DNA of 64,000 bases. Origin: Nannocystis bainbridge (lineage in GTDB: Bacteria; Myxococcota_A; Polyangia; Nannocystales; Nannocystaceae). The translations under genes and the position numbers were made by a program. Shown piece after piece: positions 4,012-48,541 of the stretch. Under the pieces are notes generated by a model. It did no database searches. It saw only the letters and a program-made list of their open reading frames with translations, and was not told the origin of the DNA. The stretch's first letter is position 1. Each line of letters opens with the position of its first letter. Where the stretch lies: contig NZ_JAQNDL010000001.1 in the NCBI RefSeq assembly GCF_028368995.1, forward strand, positions 3,296,001 to 3,360,000. Direction: 5' to 3'.

Positions 4012-4056
4012 GCGCTGAGCCGCGAGCCGGGCCCATCAGCTATGACGCCTCGCTAA

Positions 4057-4116
4057 TGTCCCTCGGGACATGTCTCACTGAACATGCCCGCGAAGACATG
4101 TCCTTCGGGACATGTC
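4057..4116. repeat. Tandem array of TGTC-N6-GACA-like 14-bp units
   Basis: TGTCcctcggGACA TGTCtcactgAACA TGCCcgcgaaGACA TGTCcttcggGACA TGTC. Confidence 0.85.
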
Positions 4117-5844: not shown

Positions 5845-8800
5845 GTGTCGGCGCGCGCTCTCCTGCTGGCGATCGGTCTGGTCGCGGGCGCGGCCGGCGA
5901 GGCGCGGGCGGCCCCGGCGTGGCGCCTCGACGGGGCCGCGACCCCGAAGGCGCTCGCGCCCGGGCAGCGGGTCACCGTGCGCGTGGCGGTGACGAACCTG
6001 AGCCGAGAGACATGGTCCGAAGGCCAGCAGGACCACCTCTCCTATCACTGGGAGGACCCGGCCGGCGCGATTCTCGAGCGCGACGGGGCGCGCACGCGGC
6101 TGCCCTTCGCCGTCGGACCGGGCGAGACCGTCGCGCTGGCGGCGACTCTGGCCGCGCCGGCGAGCGCCGGCCGCTACGTGCTGCGCTGGGCGCTCGTGCG
6201 CGAGAACGCGTTCTGGTACGACCCGCCGGTCGGGGGCGGCGACGCGGTCGCGGTCGACGTCGGGCCCGCGCCCGGGACCTGGTCGATCGAGCCGATGGAG
6301 GCGCCGGCGGAGGTCGCCGCCGGGGCGCGGGCGACTGCGCGGGTCCGGCTGTGCAACACCGGCGCGAACGCGTGGCGAGCCGAGCTCGGCGACGCGCTCG
6401 GCTACCACTGGCTCGGCGCCGAGGGTCAGCGGCTCGAGGGCGTGCGCACCGCCCTGCCGGCCGCGGTGGAGCCGGGCGGCTGCGTGGTCCTGCCCGCCGA
6501 GCTGCGCGCGCCGGCGCTGCCGGGCCCGTACACGCTGGTGTGGCAGCCCGTCCGCGAGGGCGTGGCCTGGTACGGACCCGGCGCCGGCGAGGCCGCGGCG
6601 GCGGTGCGGGTCGGCGCCCCGCGCGACGCGTTCGCGGCGCTGTCGCTGAGCCTGCCGCCGCTGCAGGCCGGGCTGCCGGCGCTCGGCCAGCTGACGCTCG
6701 AGAACCGCGGCGAGGACACCTGGCTCCCGGGACATGCCCTCAAGGTCAGTTATGTTTGGACAGGTCCCGAAGGACATGTCCTCGAGGGCATCCGCACCGA
6801 GCTGGCCGAAGCGGTCGAGCCGGGCGAGGTCGTCGAGCTCGAGCTGCGGGTGCGCCCGCCCGACGCCCCCGGCGCCCACGTGCTGGCGCCGCGGCTGGTC
6901 CGCGAGGGCGAGGGGTGGATCGCGCCCGAGCGCGAGCTGGCGGCCGCGGCGGTCATCGGTCCGCCGGCGCTGGCGTGGCAGGTGGTCGAGGCCGCGTGGC
7001 CGGCCCGGCTGGCGGCGACCGGCACCGACGCGTTCGCGGTCACGGTCCGCAACACCGGCGCCGAGCCGTGGTCGCCGGCCGCGGGCGATCGCCTGTCGTA
7101 CCGCTGGCGCACCGAGGACGGCGCGCCGCTGCAGCACGAGGGCATGCGCACCGAGCTGCCGCACCCGGTCGCGCCGGGCGAGACGGCGACCGTGCAGGTC
7201 CGCGTGGCCGGGCCGCCGCGCGCGGGCAGCTACACCCTGGCGCTGGCGATGGTGCGCGAGCAGGTGCGGTGGTTCCCGCCGCCGACCGGCGGTCCTTCGG
7301 AACATGTCCTGAAGGTCACGTTGCGCGCGGCCTGGTGGCAGTCGGCGCTGGTGCTGGTGACGTTGGTGATGGTGCTGGCGGCCCGGCGCCGGCGGCCGCA
7401 GCCGGGGTCGTGGCGGTGGGCGGCGCTCGAGCTGGTGCCGGCGCTGTGGCTGTGGGCGGCCATGGCGAGCCTCGGGGCGACGTTCCACGAGCTGGCGGCG
7501 ATCGAGCTGTGGCAGGGCGGCCGCGCGGCGGCGATCGGGGCGGCGGCGGTGCCGGGGCTCATCGTGCTGCTGGCGCCGGGCCGGCTGCGGCCGTGGCTGG
7601 CGTTCTTGCTGGCTCTCGGGACAGCCGTGCTGCTGCTGGCCGACCTGCTTTACATGCACGTGCTCGGGGCGATCGTGCCGGTGCAGGCGCTGGCCGGGGC
7701 GCACCTGGTCGGGGACATCGGCGCCAGCGTCAAGGCGCTGCTGCGGCCCGAGTACGCCTGGCTGGCCGCGGCGCCGCTGGCCGGGCTGATCCTCGCGGGC
7801 GCGTGGCCGCGGGCGCGCGGACCAGAGCGAGCGAGCGCGCGGGCCCGCAGGCGAGCGACGCTCGCGGGCCTGCTGACGATGTCGCTGGCGTCGCTGCCGA
7901 TCGCGGTGAGCCTCGGCGGGGCGATGCGCAGCGGCCTCGGCTCGCGCGTGTTCTCCGAGCAACACAACGCCGGCCGCTTCGGCGTGCTCGGGGCGCACCT
8001 GTTCGACGTGGTCCGCACGCTCGCCGGCGCCGTCGGCCAGCGCGCATTGACGGCCGAGGAGCAGGCCGAGATCGCGGCGTTCTTCGCCGCCCGCGAGCCG
8101 TCGCGCGCCCCGGGCTTCGGCGCGGCGCGCGGGGCCAACTTGCTGGTGATCCAGGCCGAGGCGCTGCAGGGCTGGACGATCGGCGCCAGCGTGGCGGGCC
8201 AGGAGATCACGCCGTTTTTGAACCGCCTGCGCCGGCGTGCGCTCTACTACGCGGCGGTGGTCGACATCACCGGCCAGGGCATGACCTCGGACGCGGAGTA
8301 TGCGATCCTCAATTCGCAGTACCCGCTGGGCCAGGGCGCCGTGGCGTTCCTGCGCGCCGGCAACCGGTTCGAGACGGTCGCCCACGCGCTCCAGGCGGCC
8401 GGCTACGCGACGCTGTCGGCCCACCCGTTCAAGCGCGGGTTCTGGAACCGGGCCACGCTGCACCCGCGCTACGGCTTCGAGCGCTCGCTGTTCGACCGCG
8501 AGCTCGGCCCGGGGCCGACGATCGGCTGGGGCCTGGCCGACGAGGCGTTCTTCGCCCGCATGCTGCCGGAGCTGGCGGCCGCGCCGAAGCCGTTCTTCGC
8601 GTTCCTGGTGACGCTGAGCCTGCACCACCCGTACGACGAGTTCCCGCCGGGCCTGCGCCGGCTACAGCTGGGCCCGCTCGAGGGCACGAACCTCGGCAAC
8701 TACCTCCACGGGATCCACCACCTCGACGCGGCCCTGGCCGAGCTGTTCGCCGGGCTCGAGGCGGCTGGCCTCGCGGACAGCACGGCGGTGGCGATCTACG

Positions 8801-12539: not shown

Positions 12540-12581
12540 TGTCCCCGAAGACATGCCCGTGAGGACATGTCCTTCGAGACA
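12540..12581. repeat. Tandem TGTC-N6-GACA array (3 units)
   Basis: TGTCcccgaaGACA TGCCcgtgagGACA TGTCcttcgaGACA between convergent genes. Confidence 0.85.
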
Positions 12582-12605
12582 TGATCGTCAGACGGTCAGA
12601 CTCCC

Positions 12606-14942: not shown

Positions 14943-15038
14943 CGCGCCGCCAAGCGGCCGCGCGCCACGGCTCGGGAGTCCGCGCGTCGACGAGCGCCCG
15001 GGTCGCCTGGCCGCGTGCGCAGCCGCGCGATGCCTTCA

Positions 15039-15122
15039 TGTCCCGAGCGACATGTCCAGAGAGACATATCCAGAGCGACATGCCCAATTCGACATGCCCG
15101 CGAGGACATGCCCCACGCGACG
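15039..15122. repeat. Tandem TGTC-N6-GACA array (6 units, 14-bp period)
   Basis: TGTCccgagcGACA TGTCcagagaGACA TATCcagagcGACA TGCCcaattcGACA TGCCcgcgagGACA TGCCccacgcGACG. Confidence 0.88.
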
Positions 15123-38018: not shown

Positions 38019-39269
38019 ATGGCGCGGGTCCACCTTTGGCGCAGGATATCCCGGGCCGGCGTCGACTCCGGCTTGGACGAACATCTGCGGCGAAAGGTCG
38101 AGCTGACGAACAAGCTCGGCTTCACTGCGGGCGTCCTGGTGTTCACGGGAAATTCGCTGTTCTGGGGGGTCCTCGGCGCCGACGTTCGCATGGTCCTCGT
38201 CTTGTTCGCAGCGGCCCTCGCCTATGCCTCGATCCCCTTGATCAACCGCGCGCGTCGGTACGACCTCTCGCGCGGCGTGCTGACCGTTCTTCCGCCGATC
38301 TTCATCGTCGCGGCGGCTGGCATCATCAGCGACACTCCGCTCCTCAGCTTCAAGTTCGCGCTGCTGTCGGTTATCGCCGGGCCGCTCCTCGTGTTCGGCA
38401 TCGAAGAGCCGCGGAAAATGATCGCCGGCATCGTGTGGGTCGCCGTCTGTCTCGTCGGGATGGACACGATGATGCCGATCATCCCGAAGCTTTCGGGATT
38501 AGACGCAAACCCGCTCGAGGGCTCGCTCTCCGTCACGATCAACGCGGCGGTGAGTTGCCTGATTTTTGTCTCCTCGTTCGTCTATTTTCAGCGCCTCAAC
38601 CTCGCCGCAGAGAGGAAGCTGGAGGCCGAGAAGGTCAAGTCGGAGCGCTTGCTCCTCAACGTCTTGCCGCGAGAGATCGCCGATACGCTCAAAGAGTCCG
38701 AGCGAACCATCGCGGAACACCTCGAGAGCGCCAGCATTCTGTTCGCGGACCTCGTCGGGTTCACACCACTAGCGGCGAAGCTCTCGCCCGGCGCCGTCGT
38801 CGACCTCTTGAACGAGCTGTTCTCCGAGTTCGATCGGATGGCCGAGCGGCTCGGCGTGGAAAAGATCAAGACCATCGGCGACTGCTACATGGCGGCCGCC
38901 GGGGTCCCCAGGCCCACCGATGACCATGCCCACGCACTGACGCGGCTAGCGCTGGCTATGCAGGCGTTCATGACGGAGTACCGGTTCGAGGGACGGCGCC
39001 TGGCGCTGCGCATAGGGATCAACTCCGGGCCGGTGACTGCTGGCGTGATCGGCCGCAAGAAGTTCGTCTACGACCTGTGGGGCCACACGGTGAATGTCGC
39101 TAGCCGAATGGAATCGCAGGGGAGCGGCGGAGTCGTTCAGATCACCGACTCGACTCATGCGCTGATCGAGGACGATTTCGCGTGCGTGTCCGGCGGTGTC
39201 GTCAATGTCAAGGGCACTGGCGAAATGCACGTGTGGCACGTCCTCGGAGCCCGCGACGGCCGAGCTTGA
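38019..39269 (+). CDS. Membrane-anchored class III adenylate cyclase, catalytically complete
   Basis: About 6 TM helices; 'SERLLLNVLP'; 'LFADLVGFT', 'EKIKTIGDCYM', 'YDLWGHTVNVASRMES' contain all six canonical residues. Confidence 0.92.
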   Translation: MARVHLWRRISRAGVDSGLDEHLRRKVELTNKLGFTAGVLVFTGNSLFWGVLGADVRMVLVLFAAALAYASIPLINRARRYDLSRGVLTVLPPIFIVAAAGIISDTPLLSFKFALLSVIAGPLLVFGIEEPRKMIAGIVWVAVCLVGMDTMMPIIPKLSGLDANPLEGSLSVTINAAVSCLIFVSSFVYFQRLNLAAERKLEAEKVKSERLLLNVLPREIADTLKESERTIAEHLESASILFADLVGFTPLAAKLSPGAVVDLLNELFSEFDRMAERLGVEKIKTIGDCYMAAAGVPRPTDDHAHALTRLALAMQAFMTEYRFEGRRLALRIGINSGPVTAGVIGRKKFVYDLWGHTVNVASRMESQGSGGVVQITDSTHALIEDDFACVSGGVVNVKGTGEMHVWHVLGARDGRA

Positions 39270-39279
39270 CGGGCTGCGG

Positions 39280-39765
39280 CGGCGCATCCCCGCTGGCACG
39301 GGGGAGCCATCGTCCAAGACCCCCTCATCTTCCAGGCCAAGGGCGCATCCCCGCTGGCGCGCGGGGCCGGCGGCAACCTCGTCGCGGCGAACCTCCGGGC
39401 GGGCGCATCCCCGCTGGCGCGGGAGAGCCCTGACTGCGCTGCCGTCCGGCGCGTGGCAGAGGGGCGCATCCCCGCTGGCGCGGCGGCGCATCCTCGCTGG
39501 CGCGGGGAAGCCCGCACCAACGGAGAGCTGGGAGAGGGTGCCCTTCTGGCGCGGGGGAGCTGGGATCTCCACCCCGCGGCTCTTGAGCTCGTACGGCGCA
39601 TCCCCGCTGGCCCGGGGGAGCCCGCTCGGGGTGCCTGCGGATGTCGTCGAAGGAGGGCGCATCCCCATTGGGTCGTCAAGGACCAGGAGGGCGCATCCCC
39701 ACTGGCCCGGGGGAGCCAAGGTCCCGATGGCCAGCCAGGGCCTCGTGCACGGCGCATCACCACGC
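39280..39765 (-). CRISPR. Degenerate orphan type I-E-like CRISPR array, right segment (~10 repeats)
   Basis: Repeat SGGCGCATCCCCGCTGGCGCGGGGAGCC at 39280, 39341, 39401, 39462, 39484, ~39536, 39594, 39655, 39689, 39750; mostly ~61-bp period with unique ~32-bp spacers; reverse complement resembles the I-E repeat GTGTTCCCCGCGCCAGCGGGGATAAACCG. Confidence 0.8.
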
Positions 39766-40211
39766 CTGCCGACGGCGCCGGCGAGGGCGACACGCCCAAG
39801 ACGGCAATGTTGCGCCGCATCGCCACGTGTACGCGTCTATCAGCGCGACGTGATCCGCGGCCGCCCGCGAGCGGCGATAACCGGGAAATACGAGCGGGAC
39901 GACGACTTGGTTCCCGAGCCGGCGGAAGTGATGGCGCTGTGTCTTGCTGGCGGGCTCGCCGGCAACGGGGTAGCGCTGCGCCACACCGGCGTGCGCAGGC
40001 CGTAAAGGATGATCTCTGGCGAGCTGTCTTTTGGGACACCAAGTACGCTTGGGGGGCGCCAAGCGTGTTTGGCGGTCAAAACACACGGTTTAAGGCGCTA
40101 CGGCTCATGATCCGCGAGGCATCGTCGCGTCACTCTCAGGACGAGCGCGTGTCGTGATGAACGACTCGCTCACTCTCACTCTCTGAGTCTTCACCCTGTA
40201 AGGAGGATACA

Positions 40212-40811
40212 ATGTCTCTCATCGCTACCATGTTCGCACTCGCCACGACGACCACCCCGACGACGCCCAGCGCGTACGATCTTCTCGCCCGTCTGGAGGC
40301 GATGCCCGTGGTGCTCGAGGAAGTCGCGGCCGTCGTCGACCTGAACGACGGCGTGGACCTCGAGGTCAACTTCAATCTGAGCAGCGTCGGTGCGGTCACC
40401 ATCGCCGCGCATGAAGACGACGATGGCTCCGGTCACGGGCTCGTGCTCGTAGGCGCCGCCGTCGTCGCGGAGTTCGAGCTCGCAGGCGACACGGTCGTCT
40501 GGGAGACAGTCGACCTCGCTGGCTTCCGCCCGGAGCAGGTGGAAGCGGTCGCGGCGAGCATCCTGCAGGTCTGGCGCGAGGATGAGGTCGCGGAAGCGCT
40601 CGCCGCCGCGCCCACCGAGCCGACCGAAGACCGGAGCCTCAAGTGCACGGCTGCCGCCGGGATCGCCGGCGCCACGGCAGGCATCTTGATCGGCGCGACC
40701 TGCGGCATCTTCATCAAGAATCCGGTGACGTGCGGCAAGGCCGGGGGGAGCGCCTACGGGGCCGTTTCGCACTATATTTCGAACAAGTGCAACGGCGCGC
40801 AGAACGGGTGA
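40212..40811 (+). CDS. Secreted protein with acidic pro-region and C-terminal Gly/Ala/Cys-rich peptide (putative bacteriocin precursor)
   Basis: Strong RBS AAGGAGG; N-terminal hydrophobic stretch; C-terminal ~55 aa with 4 Cys; the functional call is inference. Confidence 0.6.
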   Translation: MSLIATMFALATTTTPTTPSAYDLLARLEAMPVVLEEVAAVVDLNDGVDLEVNFNLSSVGAVTIAAHEDDDGSGHGLVLVGAAVVAEFELAGDTVVWETVDLAGFRPEQVEAVAASILQVWREDEVAEALAAAPTEPTEDRSLKCTAAAGIAGATAGILIGATCGIFIKNPVTCGKAGGSAYGAVSHYISNKCNGAQNG

Positions 40812-41554
40812 GCAAGGAGGAGGGGGCTTTGGACTCGCAGCGAATTACGCCGTACAGACCCCTGCCGCCGCAGCGGTGGGGTTTCCTGGCGACGAACCAG
40901 TTCTGGTCTCGCGCGTGGCTGACGCCCATCTCCATCGTCTTCTGGGCCGGCGCCGCGGTCTTCTTCAGCCTCTTCGACCTCTTCGCCCTCGTGTGGTGGC
41001 AGCAGGCGCTGGGATTCCTGGCGTTCTACGGGGTCTGGGGCGGGCTGGTGGAGCGGTACTCCAGGAAATACCTGGCTCGCCAGCGGGTGCGGGCGCTCGC
41101 CGGCCCCCGAACCGATCCACCAGAAGGTCCCGCGGATGCAGCCGCCGAGACTACATCGAGGGCCCTCCCGGAGCCTCCTGACGCGTCGTCACGCGCCCTC
41201 GTGCCATCACGCGAGCCACGGCCAGAGCCGTCGCTCGTGGCGACGGCCGAAACCTGGGACGACGGGTACGAGAGGCTGTTCGGGCGCGGCGCAGCCGTCG
41301 CCCAGCTCGTGTCCAATGTCGCTTTCGGGCTGGCGATCTTCTACCCGAGCTGGCCGGTCAAGCTCCTGGCATTCCTGGCTCTGCTCGTTACTTCGCTTGG
41401 CCTCGGGTTGTGGCAACGCCGGAGGGCGATGCCGGCCGGTGGGGAAGTACCCCCCGAGGCACTGGAAACCGGCGCGGGGGCGCCGAACGCAGAGTTGGGC
41501 GGCGCCGGTTCCAACACGGCAGGGCGCTCGCCCGGGGCGCTGCCGCATGAGTGA
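40808..41554 (+). CDS. Hypothetical 4-TM membrane protein (putative immunity protein)
   Basis: GTGA overlap with the upstream stop; two Trp/Phe-rich TM hairpins. Confidence 0.6.
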   Translation: MSKEEGALDSQRITPYRPLPPQRWGFLATNQFWSRAWLTPISIVFWAGAAVFFSLFDLFALVWWQQALGFLAFYGVWGGLVERYSRKYLARQRVRALAGPRTDPPEGPADAAAETTSRALPEPPDASSRALVPSREPRPEPSLVATAETWDDGYERLFGRGAAVAQLVSNVAFGLAIFYPSWPVKLLAFLALLVTSLGLGLWQRRRAMPAGGEVPPEALETGAGAPNAELGGAGSNTAGRSPGALPHE

Positions 41555-41730
41555 GCTCGGCCTGTCGGAACCGATCTAACTCGACCTTGCGCATAGCGGC
41601 GTCGCCGCCGTGGGTCTTGGCGACGGTCTCGCCCCCCGGCTGTCGATCACCACAAATTCGTCAGTCCTTAGGCCGTCCCGCCGCAACCGCGCTGGTCGCT
41701 CGTGAGCGCTCAATTCCCCAGATGCAACCC

Positions 41731-42578
41731 TCAGCCGAGCGGCTCGAAGAGCTCGGCCACGGGCGAGTCGTTCGGGGCGGGGTCGTAGTCGCCGATGCCG
41801 TCGAAGCAAGCGTGAACTTCGGGAGATGAGCCACCACGCGCGCGGGCCATCCGGGCACACCCGGCGAGCAGCGCCAGCACCTCTTCGACCCATGGATCCG
41901 CGAGGTCTTCTATGCACGCCGGAAAAGCTGCGAACCCGGCGGGCACATCGACCTCGGACCTGCGATCGTCCTGCAGCTTCGCCAGCGCGACCGCGAAGTG
42001 TAGCGACACCGCGACGATCGCCGGCGCGCTGCCGTGTCTGGCGACCGCGAGCGTGCGCTCGTGGGCCCGCTCGAGACGGCTCGCAGATGCCCGCCAGTAA
42101 CGGCGGAGCAACCGCTCCGACCGCGAGCGCCGGCGGACCTGCTCGCGGTACTCCGCCTTCCAGCGCGCAACACCGGAGCTGCGCTTCCACGCCTCGACGA
42201 AGAAATCGAGGTCGGCCGGGAACTCGAGCGCGATGAGCCGCTCGATGGCCTCGTCCGCGGCGATCATCGCCGCCTGCCCGAGCGCCGAGCGCAGCGCACC
42301 CCGGCGCTTCGGAGCGACCTGGGCCACCCGGCCTCCGGCGCGCCCGGTTCGGCCGCAGCGAACGCGGCGAACATCCCTGCAGCGTCGGCGAAGCGAGCGC
42401 TCGCGACCGCGGCGAGAGCGTCACGCAGCGCGGCAACCTGGTGCGCCGTCGGCGGGACGTCGTCATCCTCGACCGCCTCGTCTGCATCGGCCGCCTCGAA
42501 GCCCGCCGCGAGCTCGCGCGAAGCGCTCGGATACGGCGTCGCTAAAAATTGCCCGCGCTCGAACAGGAGCGCCGTCAT
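41731..42578 (-). pseudogene. Probably frameshifted hypothetical gene (two overlapping ORFs)
   Basis: ORFs 42264-42683 and 41731-42327 overlap in different frames; protein-like sequence switches frame near 42330. Confidence 0.35.
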
Positions 42579-42757
42579 CACCACCAGGAGCACGTACACG
42601 CGGCCGATGAACGAGCGATGAACGCTGCGGATCTCAGCATTCGCGCATGGACTCGACGACCACGAGACCCGTCGAAATAACATGTCCCTTGGGACACGTT
42701 ATGATCCTTCTCGAGGACTCCCGACCTTCGCGGCCTTTCGATTGTCCAGCAGACCTC

Positions 42758-43954
42758 TCAGCCCACCGTCGCCGGGCTGCGGTACCCCTCCGGCTCCCCG
42801 CGCACCACCGCAGCTCGCTCCTCCGCCGTCAGCTCCGCCCACGTCGCCGCGTCCACCACGACTTGCTCCGGCGTCGCTCGCTCTTCCATTGCGAACGCCG
42901 CCTCGATCGCCGCCCCCCACATGTCGTAGGCCAGCTTGTTCGTCCCCACCACCCCAGCGATCACCTCGCCGGTCCCGACCCCGATGCGCACCCGGATTGC
43001 GCGCGCCTGGCAGGCCTCTGCGCGCTCGACTGCCGCGCGCATGCGCAGCGCCAGGTCGACCGCCGCGCGGGCTGACGGCTCGCGGCCTGACAGCCCGACC
43101 GCCGCCACATACGCATCGCCGACCGTCTTCACCTTGTCCGCGCCACGCTCCTTGCAGACCGCATCGAACGCGCTGAACGTCGCGTTGAGCACACGGACGA
43201 TGTCCTCCGCGGCTGCCTCTTCGGCCAGGCGCGTGAACCCGGCGATGTCGCACACCACGATGCTCACCTGCGGGTGACGTCGCCCCACCCCTTCGCCGCC
43301 CTCGCGCAGCGTCGCCACGAACTCGGCCGGCAGCACCGTCCCCAGCAGCGCGTCCGTGCGGCCGCGCAGCGCTCGCAGCTCGTCGCGCGTCCGCGCCGTC
43401 ACCCGCTGCGCGTAGTACGTCGCCACCGCCATCGCCGCCGCCACCAGCGACATGTTGATCTGGAAGTTGCTGCGCACGTCCTCGGGCGCCGCCCCCATCG
43501 CCGGCACCACCGCGAACGCGAAGCAGAAGCCGAGGAACGCCGCCGCGTTGAGACCTGCCACTGCCAGCGCCGTCCGCCGCCGCTCGCTCGGGAACAGCAT
43601 GAACGTCAGCACGATCACCGGCATGTACCAGTACTGCAGCCCGTAGATCGGCCCGAACAGCGACACCGCGCCGGCCGTCGAGAGCAGCGTGTACAGCGCG
43701 AAGATCACCGCCGCTGCTGCGTGACGGCCCTTCGTCGACAGCCACAGCGAGAACATCGGCGGCCCGATCCCCGCCGACAGCCCGTACACCACTCCTGTCA
43801 GCGAGCCCGCCGCGTAGATCGAGCTCAGCAGCACCGTGATCGCCGTGAAGCCGATCGCCAGCAGGCACAGCCCGTGGAGGAACACCACGTGCTGGCGCTC
43901 GAGCGGCGCCGCGTGCGGGGCCAGGCCCTGGCGCAGCAGTCGCCGGAGGCTCAC
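42758..43954 (-). CDS. Membrane class III cyclase, C1-like half (metal-binding Asp residues only)
   Basis: TM block; 'VVCDIAGFT' and 'KVKTVGDAYV' intact, but 'YDMWGAAIEAAFAME' lacks the catalytic Asn and Arg; GTG 43954 overlaps the upstream TGA. Confidence 0.85.
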   Translation of the reverse strand: MSLRRLLRQGLAPHAAPLERQHVVFLHGLCLLAIGFTAITVLLSSIYAAGSLTGVVYGLSAGIGPPMFSLWLSTKGRHAAAAVIFALYTLLSTAGAVSLFGPIYGLQYWYMPVIVLTFMLFPSERRRTALAVAGLNAAAFLGFCFAFAVVPAMGAAPEDVRSNFQINMSLVAAAMAVATYYAQRVTARTRDELRALRGRTDALLGTVLPAEFVATLREGGEGVGRRHPQVSIVVCDIAGFTRLAEEAAAEDIVRVLNATFSAFDAVCKERGADKVKTVGDAYVAAVGLSGREPSARAAVDLALRMRAAVERAEACQARAIRVRIGVGTGEVIAGVVGTNKLAYDMWGAAIEAAFAMEERATPEQVVVDAATWAELTAEERAAVVRGEPEGYRSPATVG

Positions 43955-45189
43955 GGCGCGCGCCCTGCCTTGCGTGCTCCGCGGACGAAGTACGTCTTCA
44001 TCGCCCCCTTGCCCTTGATCTCCACCCCTTCGCGCCCGCTGCACTCGAAGCGATGGTTGATCTTCGCGAACGTCAGCGGCGACACGTGGACCTCGCCTGC
44101 CAGCCCGTGCATCTCCATCCGCTGGGCCGTGTTGACCGTATCGCCCCACAGGTCGTACGTCGGTCGCACCTGCCCGATCACCCCTGCGACCACCGGCCCC
44201 GAGTTGACCCCGATGCGCACCGCGATCCCCGGCGTCGCCGCGAACTCGTCGCGCAGCGCCAGCCCCAGCGCCACCAGCACCTCCGCGTGGTCCGGGCGGT
44301 ACACCGGCAGCCCGGCCGCCGCGACGAAGCTGGTCCCCGTCGTCTTGATCTTCTCCGCCCCGAACTCGGCGCAGCGGCGGTCGATCGCGGCGAACACCGC
44401 GTGGAGCCGGGCCAGGTACGCCTCTGGCGTCTGGCCCTCGGCCGGGCGGTCGAGCCCGATCACCCGGCAGAACAGCACCGACGCGTCGCCCTGGCGCTCC
44501 GCGATCTCCTGCTCGCCCGCTTGCAGGCGCAGCCCGATCTCCTCCGGGAACACGCTGCGGAGCAGCCGCTCCGACTTCGCCCGCTCGTGCTCGAGGTCTG
44601 CCGCGGCCATCGCGTTGAACGAGCGCGAGCCGTAGCCGACCAGCAGCGTGATCGCCACCAGCAGCCCCTGATGCAGGTACTGGTTGGGCCCGTACTGGGC
44701 CACGCGCCGGGCCAGGTCGCCGTCGAGGTCCCAACCGTAGACCAGCACTGCCAGGCACGTCGAAGCTGCCAGCGCCGTGGCCAGCGCCGCTGTCGGCTCG
44801 CGGCTGGGGAACAGCAGGAACGGCAGCGCCGCCACCAGGATCAGCATGAAGAAGTTGCCGTAGTCGAGCCCGAGGGTCCACGAGCCGACCACGATCGAAG
44901 TCATCACCGCGACGTGGAACACCAGCGCCGCGTCGCGCGGGCGGCCGCGGGCGTGCAGCGCGAACACGGCTCCCAGGCCGCCGACCGTGAGCCCGAGGTG
45001 GGCCAGGAGCGCCGGGTCGAGCGGCCGGCCGGTGCCCATGTGACCCGCGCAGGCCATCACGATCCCGAGCAGCGCCAGCCCGTTGAGCAGGCGGATCCGC
45101 TGACCATCCTCTCGGGACATGTCCTCGCGGACACCCGCCGCGACGGCCCGCGACAGCGCCGCTCGCACCCGCAGGCCCGCGTTCGTCAC
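43951..45189 (-). CDS. Membrane class III cyclase, C2-like half (substrate and transition-state residues only)
   Basis: TM block; 'SERLLRSVFP'; 'VLFCRVIGL' and 'KIKTTGTSFV' lack both Asp; 'YDLWGDTVNTAQRME' intact. Confidence 0.85.
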   Translation of the reverse strand: MTNAGLRVRAALSRAVAAGVREDMSREDGQRIRLLNGLALLGIVMACAGHMGTGRPLDPALLAHLGLTVGGLGAVFALHARGRPRDAALVFHVAVMTSIVVGSWTLGLDYGNFFMLILVAALPFLLFPSREPTAALATALAASTCLAVLVYGWDLDGDLARRVAQYGPNQYLHQGLLVAITLLVGYGSRSFNAMAAADLEHERAKSERLLRSVFPEEIGLRLQAGEQEIAERQGDASVLFCRVIGLDRPAEGQTPEAYLARLHAVFAAIDRRCAEFGAEKIKTTGTSFVAAAGLPVYRPDHAEVLVALGLALRDEFAATPGIAVRIGVNSGPVVAGVIGQVRPTYDLWGDTVNTAQRMEMHGLAGEVHVSPLTFAKINHRFECSGREGVEIKGKGAMKTYFVRGARKAGRAP

Positions 45190-45343
45190 TTCCCCGGCAC
45201 CTTACCGGAAACCCCCGCCAGCGTCCCGCCGGGCCCGACCGGCGGCTGGCGCGGAAACGAGCCGCCCGCAGCCGTCACATGCCCGAAAGGACATGTCGCA
45301 AAAGCCATACGGACACGCGTTCGCCGACGCGCGTCGTCACGGC

Positions 45344-46939
45344 TCAGTCGGCGAGCTTCAGCGTCACCTCGACCTGCGCACCGTCCGGGGCCTGCACACG
45401 CAGCTCGCCGCGGTCCCGGTCGAGCGTCCAGCATGCGCCCTCCGGGCCGGTCCGCGTCGCCAGTTCGATGTCGAGCGACGCGCCGTCGAACCGGCGCGGC
45501 GGCAGGGCGATCTCGCTGACCCCGCCGTCCGCGGTCCAGCTCGCCGTGACCGTCGTCTGGTCCCACGCGAACGCGCTGTCCGAGCCGGCCACCGCGCGCA
45601 GGTACGGGCGGACGAACACGTCGAGCGAGTCGCGCTCGCTGCCGTCGGCCGCGAGCACCGACAGGTCCTCCGCGTTCCAGTCGACCTCGTTCTGCGAGCA
45701 CTCCCACAGCGTGGCCGACAGCCGGCGCGCGTCCATGCGGTCGAGCGCGCGGGCCAACCACTCCTCCGCGCCCGGCGCCCCGTGCCCGTAGCCGAACTCG
45801 CCGATCAGCACGCCCAGCCCCTCCGCTGCCGCGAAGTCGGCGACGTCGTCGAGGTACGGCTCCGGCATCATCCCGATCGAGGGCAGCCCCTTCACCAGCC
45901 CCGCGTCGTACATGTGCGCGGCGTACACGAGCCCCGAGCCCTCGGGCCGCACGTGCTCGACCGGCTGGAACCCGACCGCGTCGGTGCCCGGGTTGTCGAA
46001 CAGGATCAGCAGCTCGTCGCCGGCCAGCGCCCGCAGCTGGGCCACCGCCTCGGTGTGGAACGGATTGAGGACCTCGTGCTTCCACGCCGGCACGTCGTTC
46101 GCGGTGCCCGAGCCCGGCTCGTTGACGATCTCGAGCCCGACCACCCCGGGGTGGTCGCCGATGCGCGCGATCATCTGGCCCCACATCGCGAAGAACTTGG
46201 CGTGCAGCTCGTCCTCGTCGGCCCAGAAGCGGTCGAACGCGGACCGCACGTCGCCGTCGAGCACGTACTTGAGGCCCCAGTCGGCGTCCGGGCACTCGTG
46301 CGGCGCTGGCATCGGGTCTTGCTGCAACGTCCACGGCGGGAAGCCGTCGCCGCAGAACGTCGACGTGTACACGTCCTGATGGAAATCGACCACGACCCGC
46401 AGCCCGTGGGCCCACGCCGCGTCGACCATCGCCGCGTAGCGGTCGAGGTAGCGCGCGTCGTACTCGCCCGGCGCTGGCTCGAGCGCCTCCCACGAGAACA
46501 GCAGCCGCACCACGTTGATGCCCCAGCTCGGCAGCCGGGCGAAGAACTGCTCCGCCTCGGCGGCGAACCCCGCCGGATCGATCTCCGCCGCGATCGGGAA
46601 CGGCACGAACGGCGCCCACTTCGAGCGCCCGCCGGTGTTGACCCCGCGCAGCAGCACATCGCGCCCGTGCTCGTCGAGCATCCGCCCGCTCGGATCGAGG
46701 CTCACGCGCCCGCTGGTCAACAGCACAGGTTCGATCGGGCTCGTGCACTCGCCCGGGAGCAGCGGCGCCCCCGTGGTCGTCGGCGCCGCCGTCGAGGTCC
46801 CGGTCGGCTCGGTCGGCGCCGTCGCCTCCGTCCCCGCGGTCCCCGTCGTCGTCGTCGTCGCCTCGCTCGCGCCGGTGCTCGGAGACGGATCTCCGCCGCA
46901 GCCGATCGCCGCCGTCAACAGTACAAGCGCTCTGCGCAT
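45344..46939 (-). CDS. GH5 endoglycoceramidase-like lipoprotein
   Basis: Lipobox 'AIGC'; 'LLRGVN', 'NVVRLLFSWEALEP', 'DFHQD', 'NEP' acid/base, 'GEFG' nucleophile, 'RPY'. Confidence 0.85.
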   Translation of the reverse strand: MRRALVLLTAAIGCGGDPSPSTGASEATTTTTGTAGTEATAPTEPTGTSTAAPTTTGAPLLPGECTSPIEPVLLTSGRVSLDPSGRMLDEHGRDVLLRGVNTGGRSKWAPFVPFPIAAEIDPAGFAAEAEQFFARLPSWGINVVRLLFSWEALEPAPGEYDARYLDRYAAMVDAAWAHGLRVVVDFHQDVYTSTFCGDGFPPWTLQQDPMPAPHECPDADWGLKYVLDGDVRSAFDRFWADEDELHAKFFAMWGQMIARIGDHPGVVGLEIVNEPGSGTANDVPAWKHEVLNPFHTEAVAQLRALAGDELLILFDNPGTDAVGFQPVEHVRPEGSGLVYAAHMYDAGLVKGLPSIGMMPEPYLDDVADFAAAEGLGVLIGEFGYGHGAPGAEEWLARALDRMDARRLSATLWECSQNEVDWNAEDLSVLAADGSERDSLDVFVRPYLRAVAGSDSAFAWDQTTVTASWTADGGVSEIALPPRRFDGASLDIELATRTGPEGACWTLDRDRGELRVQAPDGAQVEVTLKLAD

Positions 46940-47010
46940 GCCGCATCGTAGGCGGTCCCGGCGGTCCTCGCTCGCCCGCCCGCGGGCGATCTCGAAGTCT
47001 CTGCGAGTGA

Positions 47011-48432
<1,422 letters not shown>

Positions 48433-48438
48433 GCCGCC

Positions 48439-48541
48439 TGTCCGATCGGGCCTGCCCGATCGCGCATGTTCTGAGGGGCATGTCCGCGAGGACATGCCCC
48501 TTCGCGCACGCCCGCGAGGCCATGTCTATTAAATCATGTCC
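48439..48541. repeat. Degenerate tandem TGTC-N6-GACA array between eno and the LysR gene
   Basis: TGTTctgaggGGCA TGTCcgcgagGACA TGCC...TGTCtattaaATCA TGTC, 14-bp period. Confidence 0.7.

Follow-up and report, generated by a model that had tools for sequence, protein, structure and literature searches.

The stretch of DNA analyzed here, 64 kb from Nannocystis bainbridge to which we refer in its entirety as the window (G+C content ~72%; host genome 11.05 Mb), carries on its minus strand two tandem genes for membrane-anchored class III nucleotidyl cyclases, which we call A and B after their order on that strand. We propose that A and B together constitute a single membrane adenylyl cyclase, in which a C2-like and a C1-like subunit would form a heterodimer whose one active site makes cyclic adenosine monophosphate (cAMP), and we put the probability of this proposal, which is drawn from sequence comparison, at roughly 0.7. 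Six catalytic residues are each found once across the pair and are invariant within the family of the protein that holds them, and the positions that either protein has given up are drifting; this combination points to one shared site and not to decay. The sections below cover the division of these residues and the molecular organization of the two proteins, the conservation of the pair among related genomes, the enzyme that we envisage together with its genomic setting, and finally its relation to known cyclases.

Division of the catalytic residues between A and B

The active sites are compared here by means of a six-letter signature, which lists in order the first metal-binding aspartate, the substrate-specifying lysine, the second metal-binding aspartate, the substrate-specifying aspartate, and the transition-state asparagine and arginine, the canonical reading being DKDDNR. 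The signature is RKTDNR in A and DKDDEA in B, as read from printed alignments with the codon positions checked. The preliminary description of this DNA had stated that A lacks both metal-binding aspartates and keeps the lysine, aspartate, asparagine, and arginine, and that B keeps both aspartates and lacks the asparagine and arginine, and the alignments to the mycobacterial cyclase Cya (Rv1625c) and to a mammalian cyclase bear out both sides of this reciprocal loss. The metal positions of A are occupied by Arg242 and Thr286 (against the C1 domain of AC9, A reads LFCRV for LFADI and KTTGTS for STLGDC), with Lys282, Asp346, Asn353, and Arg357 all in place; B has Asp236 and Asp280, and the alignment of its YDMWGAAIEAAFAME with YDVWGDAVNVASRME of Cya places Glu351 at the asparagine and Ala355 at the arginine. 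Neither protein thus holds the full set in one chain, the set being complete only across both, and by sequence neither an AA nor a BB dimer offers a complete site, let alone the two equivalent sites of a homodimer.

This is a division of the C1/C2 type, with the lysine and aspartate typical of enzymes that use adenosine triphosphate (ATP) on the C2-like side, and the assignment of B as C1-like and A as C2-like agrees with the mammalian division of labor, in which, according to excerpts of PMC4174876, C1 provides the metal-binding aspartates and C2 the residues that specify the substrate and those of the transition state, so that the enzyme has one active site and one pseudo-site. The predicted product is cAMP because A has lysine and aspartate and not the glutamate and cysteine of the guanylyl type (signature DEDCNR). 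The pair is also not of the soluble guanylyl cyclase type, since both chains carry the lysine and the aspartate and no H-NOX or PAS domains were found in A or B. That the heterodimer is obligate we infer strongly for A, because A is without metal ligands, and less strongly for B.

The two proteins share their overall organization. Both contain a class III nucleotidyl cyclase domain (PF00211), matched in A at 3e-41 and 141.5 bits and in B at 1.4e-37 and 129.5 bits (profile positions 5-166 of 183), with a curated cut-off of 21.9 bits. The top solved relatives of either protein are AC9, AC5, AC8, and mycobacterial Cya (7yzi), the last of which aligns with residues 78-408 of A (E 6.6e-40) and residues 101-370 of B (E 1.5e-35), both alignments extending into the membrane part. 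AlphaFold models built with family alignments give A six membrane helices, a long sixth helix with its helical domain, and a cyclase fold (mean predicted local distance difference test score, pLDDT, 79.9); the model of B has the same architecture (mean pLDDT 71.5, the membrane part being less confident), and the final beta-hairpin of the A model is missing from it, the cyclase domain of B being short at its C-terminus. The anchors of both proteins are thus of the Cya/Rv1625c kind, consisting of six helices of which the last runs into the helical domain; a match to MASE7 was weak (17.5 bits, under the cut-off of 26.2). The LP/FP motif of the helical domain is conserved in both A and B, and the corresponding proline is required for Cya activity according to the accessible part of PMC5699072. 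Pairwise identity between A and B is 30% across 306 residues. A complex prediction that paired the catalytic part of A with that of B, made with family alignments, scored 0.65, and one unrelated control scored 0.46; this weighs neither for nor against binding.

The genes themselves are physically joined. The junction on the minus strand reads CCGTGAGCC, in which the TGA is common to the GTG start of B and the stop of A, and the coordinates and the overlap given in the preliminary description for this tandem pair are exact. A database protein (P0003, 398 aa) is identical to B and has the same start. We take the four-base overlap to suggest coupled translation and hence an equal supply of the two subunits.

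Conservation, selection, and specificity of the pattern

A survey of 73 genomes of the order for tandem pairs with the same reciprocal losses identified 11 pair loci in 10 genomes, seven of them in the window's genus and four in a second genus of the Nannocystaceae. A precedes B in all 11, and the genes invariably share a four-base [A/G]TGA overlap: 10 loci have GTGA, and L269 has ATGA. Besides the window, the loci of the genus comprise four genomes in which both genes are intact at 84-90% identity, one (G004) in which A is 56% identical and B is readable for its N-terminal 174 residues, with the contig end beyond, and one (G001, on one contig, with the locus L006/L014 at G001:C1:561410-562644) in which B is intact and a one-base deletion near residue 114 splits A into two frames (CTTCTTCTGCTGATC, compared with CTTCTTTCTCTTGATC in G010). 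Close relatives of these proteins appear in public records under the names N. pusilla, N. exedens, and N. punicea.

The first metal-binding aspartate is gone from every A-type protein, with the lysine, aspartate, asparagine, and arginine retained, and every B-type protein with a readable catalytic domain (10 loci) has both aspartates and is without the asparagine and arginine, the replacing residues varying by lineage. Across the B family (18 database proteins, down to 50% identity), Asp236, Lys276, Asp280, and Asp344 are invariant, the asparagine position is glutamate in 10 and aspartate in 8, and the arginine position is alanine in all 18. The 10 proteins of the close A family, with identities as low as 58%, have arginine, threonine, or alanine at the first metal position and threonine, methionine, alanine, or glycine at the second, together with the lysine, aspartate, asparagine, and arginine in all 10. 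A further 11 distant A-type proteins (34-42% identity) have all lost the first metal-binding aspartate, six of them the second as well, and all retain the other four residues, which brings their conservation to 21 of 21 with the close family. The pairs of the second genus read NKDDNR+DRDDHA (twice), SKDDNR+DKDDLS, and AKGDNR+DKDDEL, that is, the losses are the same between lineages and the residues are different; their partner proteins are 32-35% identical to B over the full length and are more B-like than A-like. Three named metagenome-assembled genome (MAG) records, L179-L181, apparently duplicate loci L263, L262, and L265, and each locus was counted once. The distant A-type partners were read at four loci in genomes, and P0065-P0068, P0176, P0178, P0179, and P0182 are database entries without genomic context.

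This constancy bears on the possibility that neither protein makes cAMP and that the pair is a pseudoenzyme, namely a cyclase-derived receptor or nucleotide-binding module with another output. Such a module would fit with the non-canonical signatures of both A and B, with the shortness of the B cyclase domain at its C-terminus, and with the occurrence of degenerate cyclase domains elsewhere in the genome (e.g. one with the signature DRDDSH at G000:C3:781765-782406); we nevertheless regard it as quite unlikely, since the presence of each of the six catalytic residues once across the pair, without exception among the 18 B proteins and the 21 A proteins, would be unexpected had catalysis been lost.

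The catalytic domains of both A and B are under purifying selection: within the genus, the catalytic part of A has a ratio of nonsynonymous to synonymous substitution rates (dN/dS) of 0.09-0.22 and that of B one of 0.05-0.36, and the membrane parts have higher values, 0.17-0.81 (comparisons with the 56%-identical orthologue are near saturation and were not relied on). The frameshift in A of one genome and the fast membrane parts, with dN/dS up to 0.81, might suggest paralogues that are decaying to pseudogenes after a tandem duplication. This is barely credible in view of the intact frames of the other loci, the low ratios of the catalytic parts, and a pattern that persists to 35-40% identity in two genera with free variation confined to the two or three "lost" positions. 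Random, non-complementary decay of the orthologues had been named beforehand as the outcome that would speak against a split site, and what the 11 loci hold, down to ~35-40% identity, is a constant residue pattern, gene order, and overlap; the losses being complementary and the catalytic parts under purifying selection, pseudogenization was rejected.

The two genes also appear to diverge together, as the A-A and B-B identities between loci move in step (r = 0.99 for 15 comparisons among six loci, a value dominated by the two closest pairs). This matters for a further alternative, in which A is a dead regulatory subunit that tunes or poisons several cyclases, such as the paralogue at 38019-39269, and B acts independently, being weakly active or differently regulated. 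The genome offers candidates for such a role, with 19 PF00211 matches of which four read as fully canonical class IIIa domains; the one at 38019-39269, 3.5 kb from B and ~40% identical to A, is a possible alternative partner, and A paired with a canonical subunit would likewise yield one complete site. We consider this arrangement unlikely, as a general partner of this kind leaves unexplained why precisely those residues that A retains are missing from B, and equally the adjacency, the order, and the four-base overlap at every one of the 11 loci, together with the divergence in step.

The pattern also goes beyond chance. The canonical DKDDNR was read in 101 of 104 domains of non-orthologous cyclase loci retrieved as by-catch, in 74 of 76 fully read domains of a phylum-level by-catch set (the window's own pair excluded), and in 76 of 82 domains of another set, where five of the six exceptions belong to three further A/B-type pairs. 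Among 175 database relatives, 139 carry DKDDNR, and the other 36 comprise 35 A-type or B-type proteins and one incomplete read. Thirteen control loci from other taxa, each with at least two close cyclase domains and mostly in tandem on one strand, were canonical in 12 cases and read DKDDNR+DKDTNR in one, so adjacency by itself does not bring complementary loss. When an A-type profile was run against 401 Myxococcota genomes, with four candidates scored per genome, the top matches retrieved outside the window genome were all canonical and yielded no new pairs. A separate observation concerns MAG loci of Candidatus Kapaibacterium (L117, L127, and L130-L144), where two to four class III cyclase genes stand in tandem, all with DKDDNR; these arrays are an expansion of canonical cyclases, in contrast to the split-site pairs.

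The proposed enzyme and its genomic setting

We envisage that A and B would be made together through coupled translation and assembled head-to-tail in the manner of class III domains. The complete site at their interface would receive Asp236, Asp280, and Arg323 from B, and Lys282, Asp346, Asn353, Arg357, and the lysine of a KGKG motif from A, and would convert ATP to cAMP; the symmetry-related second site, with Arg242 and Thr286 of A and Glu351 and Ala355 of B, would be non-catalytic. A homodimer of A would be dead and one of B very weak at best. Together, the two unlike anchors would make up a 12-helix bundle that is asymmetric, as TM1/TM2 are in the mammalian enzymes. The degenerate pocket might correspond to a forskolin site, and the two anchors might integrate two signals, as the preliminary description suggested. 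More ambitious, and in our view possible but rather doubtful, is the suggestion that the Nannocystaceae independently evolved the whole of the mammalian-type design from two proteins, i.e. a 12-helix receptor bundle of asymmetric build, a single catalytic site, and a non-catalytic pocket that is conserved and still takes up an adenine nucleotide or some other ligand for allosteric regulation; what hints at such a pocket is that Lys276 and Asp344 of B, which would face the dead pocket, are invariant in all 18 B proteins.

A number of points weigh against the heterodimeric enzyme, and they are of different kinds. Both the predicted binding of A to B and the predicted production of cAMP are deduced by comparison with other cyclases. 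A homodimer of B may retain residual activity, with all residues but the asparagine and arginine present, and mutants of this asparagine/arginine type in other cyclases do retain a small fraction of activity. The four canonical class IIIa domains of the genome, including the one 3.5 kb away, could pair with A. Reciprocity is seen in 10 of the 11 loci, the catalytic domain of B in G004 being lost at the contig end, and the second metal-binding aspartate is still present in 5 of the 11 distant A-type proteins. The frameshift of A in G001 reflects a sequencing error or else a genuine loss of the gene. Lastly, the search came up without the pair in 63 of the 73 genomes of the order, including three of the same genus (82-88% complete), and one genome of the order (83% complete) gave a canonical cyclase match only; the pair is thus dispensable.

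The coordinates of the pair and of its surroundings are collected in Table 1.

Table 1. Features of the A-B pair and its neighborhood, in window coordinates
Feature	Position	Strand	Remarks
Gene A	43951..45189	-	412-aa class IIIa cyclase with six transmembrane helices, C2-like; without both metal Asp; Lys, Asp, Asn, Arg present
Gene B	42758..43954	-	398-aa class IIIa cyclase with six transmembrane helices, C1-like; both metal Asp present; without Asn and Arg
GTGA overlap	43951..43954	-	B start codon GTG on A stop codon TGA
A membrane anchor	44620..45114	-	Residues ~26-190; from model helices, hydropathy, and Cya 7yzi alignment (from residue 78)
A cyclase homology domain	43981..44502	-	Residues 230-403, PF00211
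A Arg242	44464..44466	-	At metal-binding Asp 1 position; without Asp in 23/23 A-type rows
A Lys282	44344..44346	-	Adenine-specifying Lys, retained
A Thr286	44332..44334	-	At metal-binding Asp 2 position; T, M, A, or G in 10/10 of close A family
A Asp346, Asn353, Arg357 (YDLWGDTVNTAQRME)	44119..44154	-	Adenine-specifying Asp and transition-state Asn/Arg, all retained
B membrane anchor	43400..43906	-	Residues ~17-185; from model (lower confidence there) and Cya alignment (from residue 101)
B cyclase homology domain	42797..43279	-	Residues 226-386, PF00211
B Asp236 (VCDIAGFT)	43247..43249	-	Metal-binding Asp 1, invariant in 18/18
B Asp280 (KTVGDAY)	43115..43117	-	Metal-binding Asp 2, invariant in 18/18
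B Glu351 and Ala355	42890..42904	-	At transition-state Asn and Arg positions
GH5 glycoside hydrolase (cellulase family) gene	45344-47074	-	Directly upstream of A; there in 7/7 genus loci, including the 56%-identical one
Enolase	47092-48432		Divergent
Palindromic element ACATGTCC-N4-GGGCATGT	45277..45296	.	Exact match; in the 154-base GH5-A spacer
Palindromic element, second copy	42680..42699	.	2 mismatches; ~60 bases downstream of B stop
Terminator-like hairpin	42550-42567	-	After second palindromic copy
Third class IIIa cyclase with six transmembrane helices	38019-39269	+	416 aa, PF00211 5.8e-57, DKDDNR

The palindromic element that brackets the pair with two of its copies is a genome-wide intergenic repeat. 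Allowing at most three mismatches, it has 49 matches in the window on both strands, compared with 0.27 expected from shuffles, and lies between genes (e.g. at 4054-4115, 6732-6793, 12551-12584, 15036-15111, and 48464-48525), the copies often being chained at 14-base steps. No RNA family of Rfam, riboswitches included, reached its gathering score in 38800-45600. A look-up of expression data for 42758-45189 brought up small-share metagenome runs and no RNA run, which speaks neither for nor against transcription. Directly after the third cyclase gene, at 39270-39730, there are about eight degenerate copies of a repeat of ~27-35 nucleotides (GGCGCATCCCCGCTGGCGCGGGG), mostly at a spacing of 60-61 bases; the spacing and the core resemble those of an array of clustered regularly interspaced short palindromic repeats of type I-E, possibly decayed.

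Two other kinds of cyclase domain may be of interest in their own right. The DRDDSH domain mentioned above belongs to a 362-aa protein with no evident membrane anchor (L271 3969-5057, plus strand), in which the metal-binding aspartates are present and the asparagine and arginine are lost; it has no adjacent cyclase gene, open reading frames of 308 and 376 aa lie upstream, and it may be described as an orphan B-type-like domain. Domains with the signature DEDCNR, with glutamate and cysteine at the substrate positions, occur at G000:C5:213657-214277 and in locus L026. We take this signature to be that of guanylyl cyclases, which suggests synthesis of cyclic guanosine monophosphate (cGMP) in Nannocystis and a relative.

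Origin of the pair and comparison with known cyclases

The origin of the pair was addressed with a tree of 146 catalytic domains (quick search, LG+G4, deep nodes weakly resolved), in which canonical sequences are represented by 45 rows drawn at random from single-domain canonical proteins of 340-470 aa, others being left out. The close A family forms one clade (support 100), as do all 21 A-type rows (support 93) and the B proteins, whose clade (support 100) has a long stem. Two-domain proteins, 34 in number with 68 domains, lie for the most part in the half of the tree that does not hold the A and B clades, and four of the five two-domain proteins that were looked up are eukaryotic (eukprot). 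As A and B do not group with the eukaryotic two-domain cyclases, the bacterial split looks independent, and the split-site design looks like an independent invention in bacteria. Descent from or to the eukaryotic C1/C2 domains was considered and finds no support in the tree, which sets A and B apart from the two-domain proteins and is weak at depth; A and B are, moreover, encoded by two genes, whereas the eukaryotic membrane cyclases have both halves in one polypeptide. We judge it very unlikely that the C2-first fused cyclases of protists came from a pair of this kind, a link for which the tree again offers no support.

Soluble guanylyl cyclase, built of an alpha and a beta polypeptide, is an obligate class III heterodimer with one catalytic site and one pseudo-site. 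Its chains are among the structure matches of A and B, and it shares with the proposed A-B enzyme a class III site that is split between separate polypeptides, but it makes cGMP, is soluble, carries H-NOX/PAS domains, and is eukaryotic, whereas A has the ATP-type lysine and aspartate. Complementing mutants of Rv1625c were reportedly engineered by Guo et al. in 2001. A natural bacterial split-site class III heterodimer was not found described in the literature searched, in which subscription journals were thinly covered and in which Shenoy et al. 2004 (PMC2447327) may mention predicted heterodimers. GcyB/GcyC of Rhodospirillum centenum was considered as a precedent and set aside, since PMC4681086 presents them as guanylyl cyclase subunits that are putative or non-catalytic, which does not amount to a described split-site pair.

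A further parallel is offered by the rhodopsin-guanylyl cyclases of chytrids (RGC/NeoR), which, as excerpts of PMC8815786 and PMC12264004 put it, function only as two-gene heterodimers. They are, like A and B, membrane class III cyclases made from two gene products, but they are eukaryotic, are gated by light through rhodopsin domains, and produce cGMP. The two-domain cyclases of protists (e.g. eukprot proteins of Ceratiomyxa and Fabomonas) have their C2-like domain first and the C1-like domain second, in the same order as A and B, with the signatures EKNDNR+DKDERQ, GKPDNR+DKDDDM, and KKNDNR+DKDESL; they differ in being fused into a single chain, in being eukaryotic, and in lying in the other half of the weakly resolved tree. 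Mycobacterial Cya/Rv1625c (7yzi) is the best or near-best solved relative and has the same class IIIa architecture with six transmembrane helices, but it carries all six residues and forms a homodimer with two sites, whereas A and B each hold part of the set.

According to Schultz 2022 (PMC9552081), bacterial class III cyclases homodimerize, and it was in early eukaryotes that the membrane enzymes were duplicated and fused and later became asymmetric. If our proposal is correct, an active site divided between two subunits of six transmembrane helices each would mean that asymmetry can arise and persist without fusion, and that the asymmetric design arose at least once outside eukaryotes. Under the more ambitious suggestion made above, the pair would represent a living example of subfunctionalization before gene fusion and a tractable bacterial model for regulation by the pseudo-site and by unlike anchors. 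As a small and bacterially expressible system, the halves of which can be mutated or swapped separately, the pair could inform the role of the mammalian anchors and pseudo-site. The mammalian membrane adenylyl cyclases (AC9, AC5, AC8, and VC1/IIC2) divide the labor in the same way, and each of their halves likewise brings together six anchoring helices, a helical domain, and a catalytic domain. They differ from the A-B pair in that they are one chain with 12 transmembrane helices, whereas A and B are two polypeptides from overlapping genes with the C2-like protein first; B is without the last beta-hairpin, and no regulation by G-proteins or forskolin is implied for A and B. The proposed mechanism itself is known from mammalian C1/C2 and from soluble guanylyl cyclase, and what is new is its setting: bacterial, encoded by two overlapping genes for proteins of six transmembrane helices each, and held by a small conserved family.

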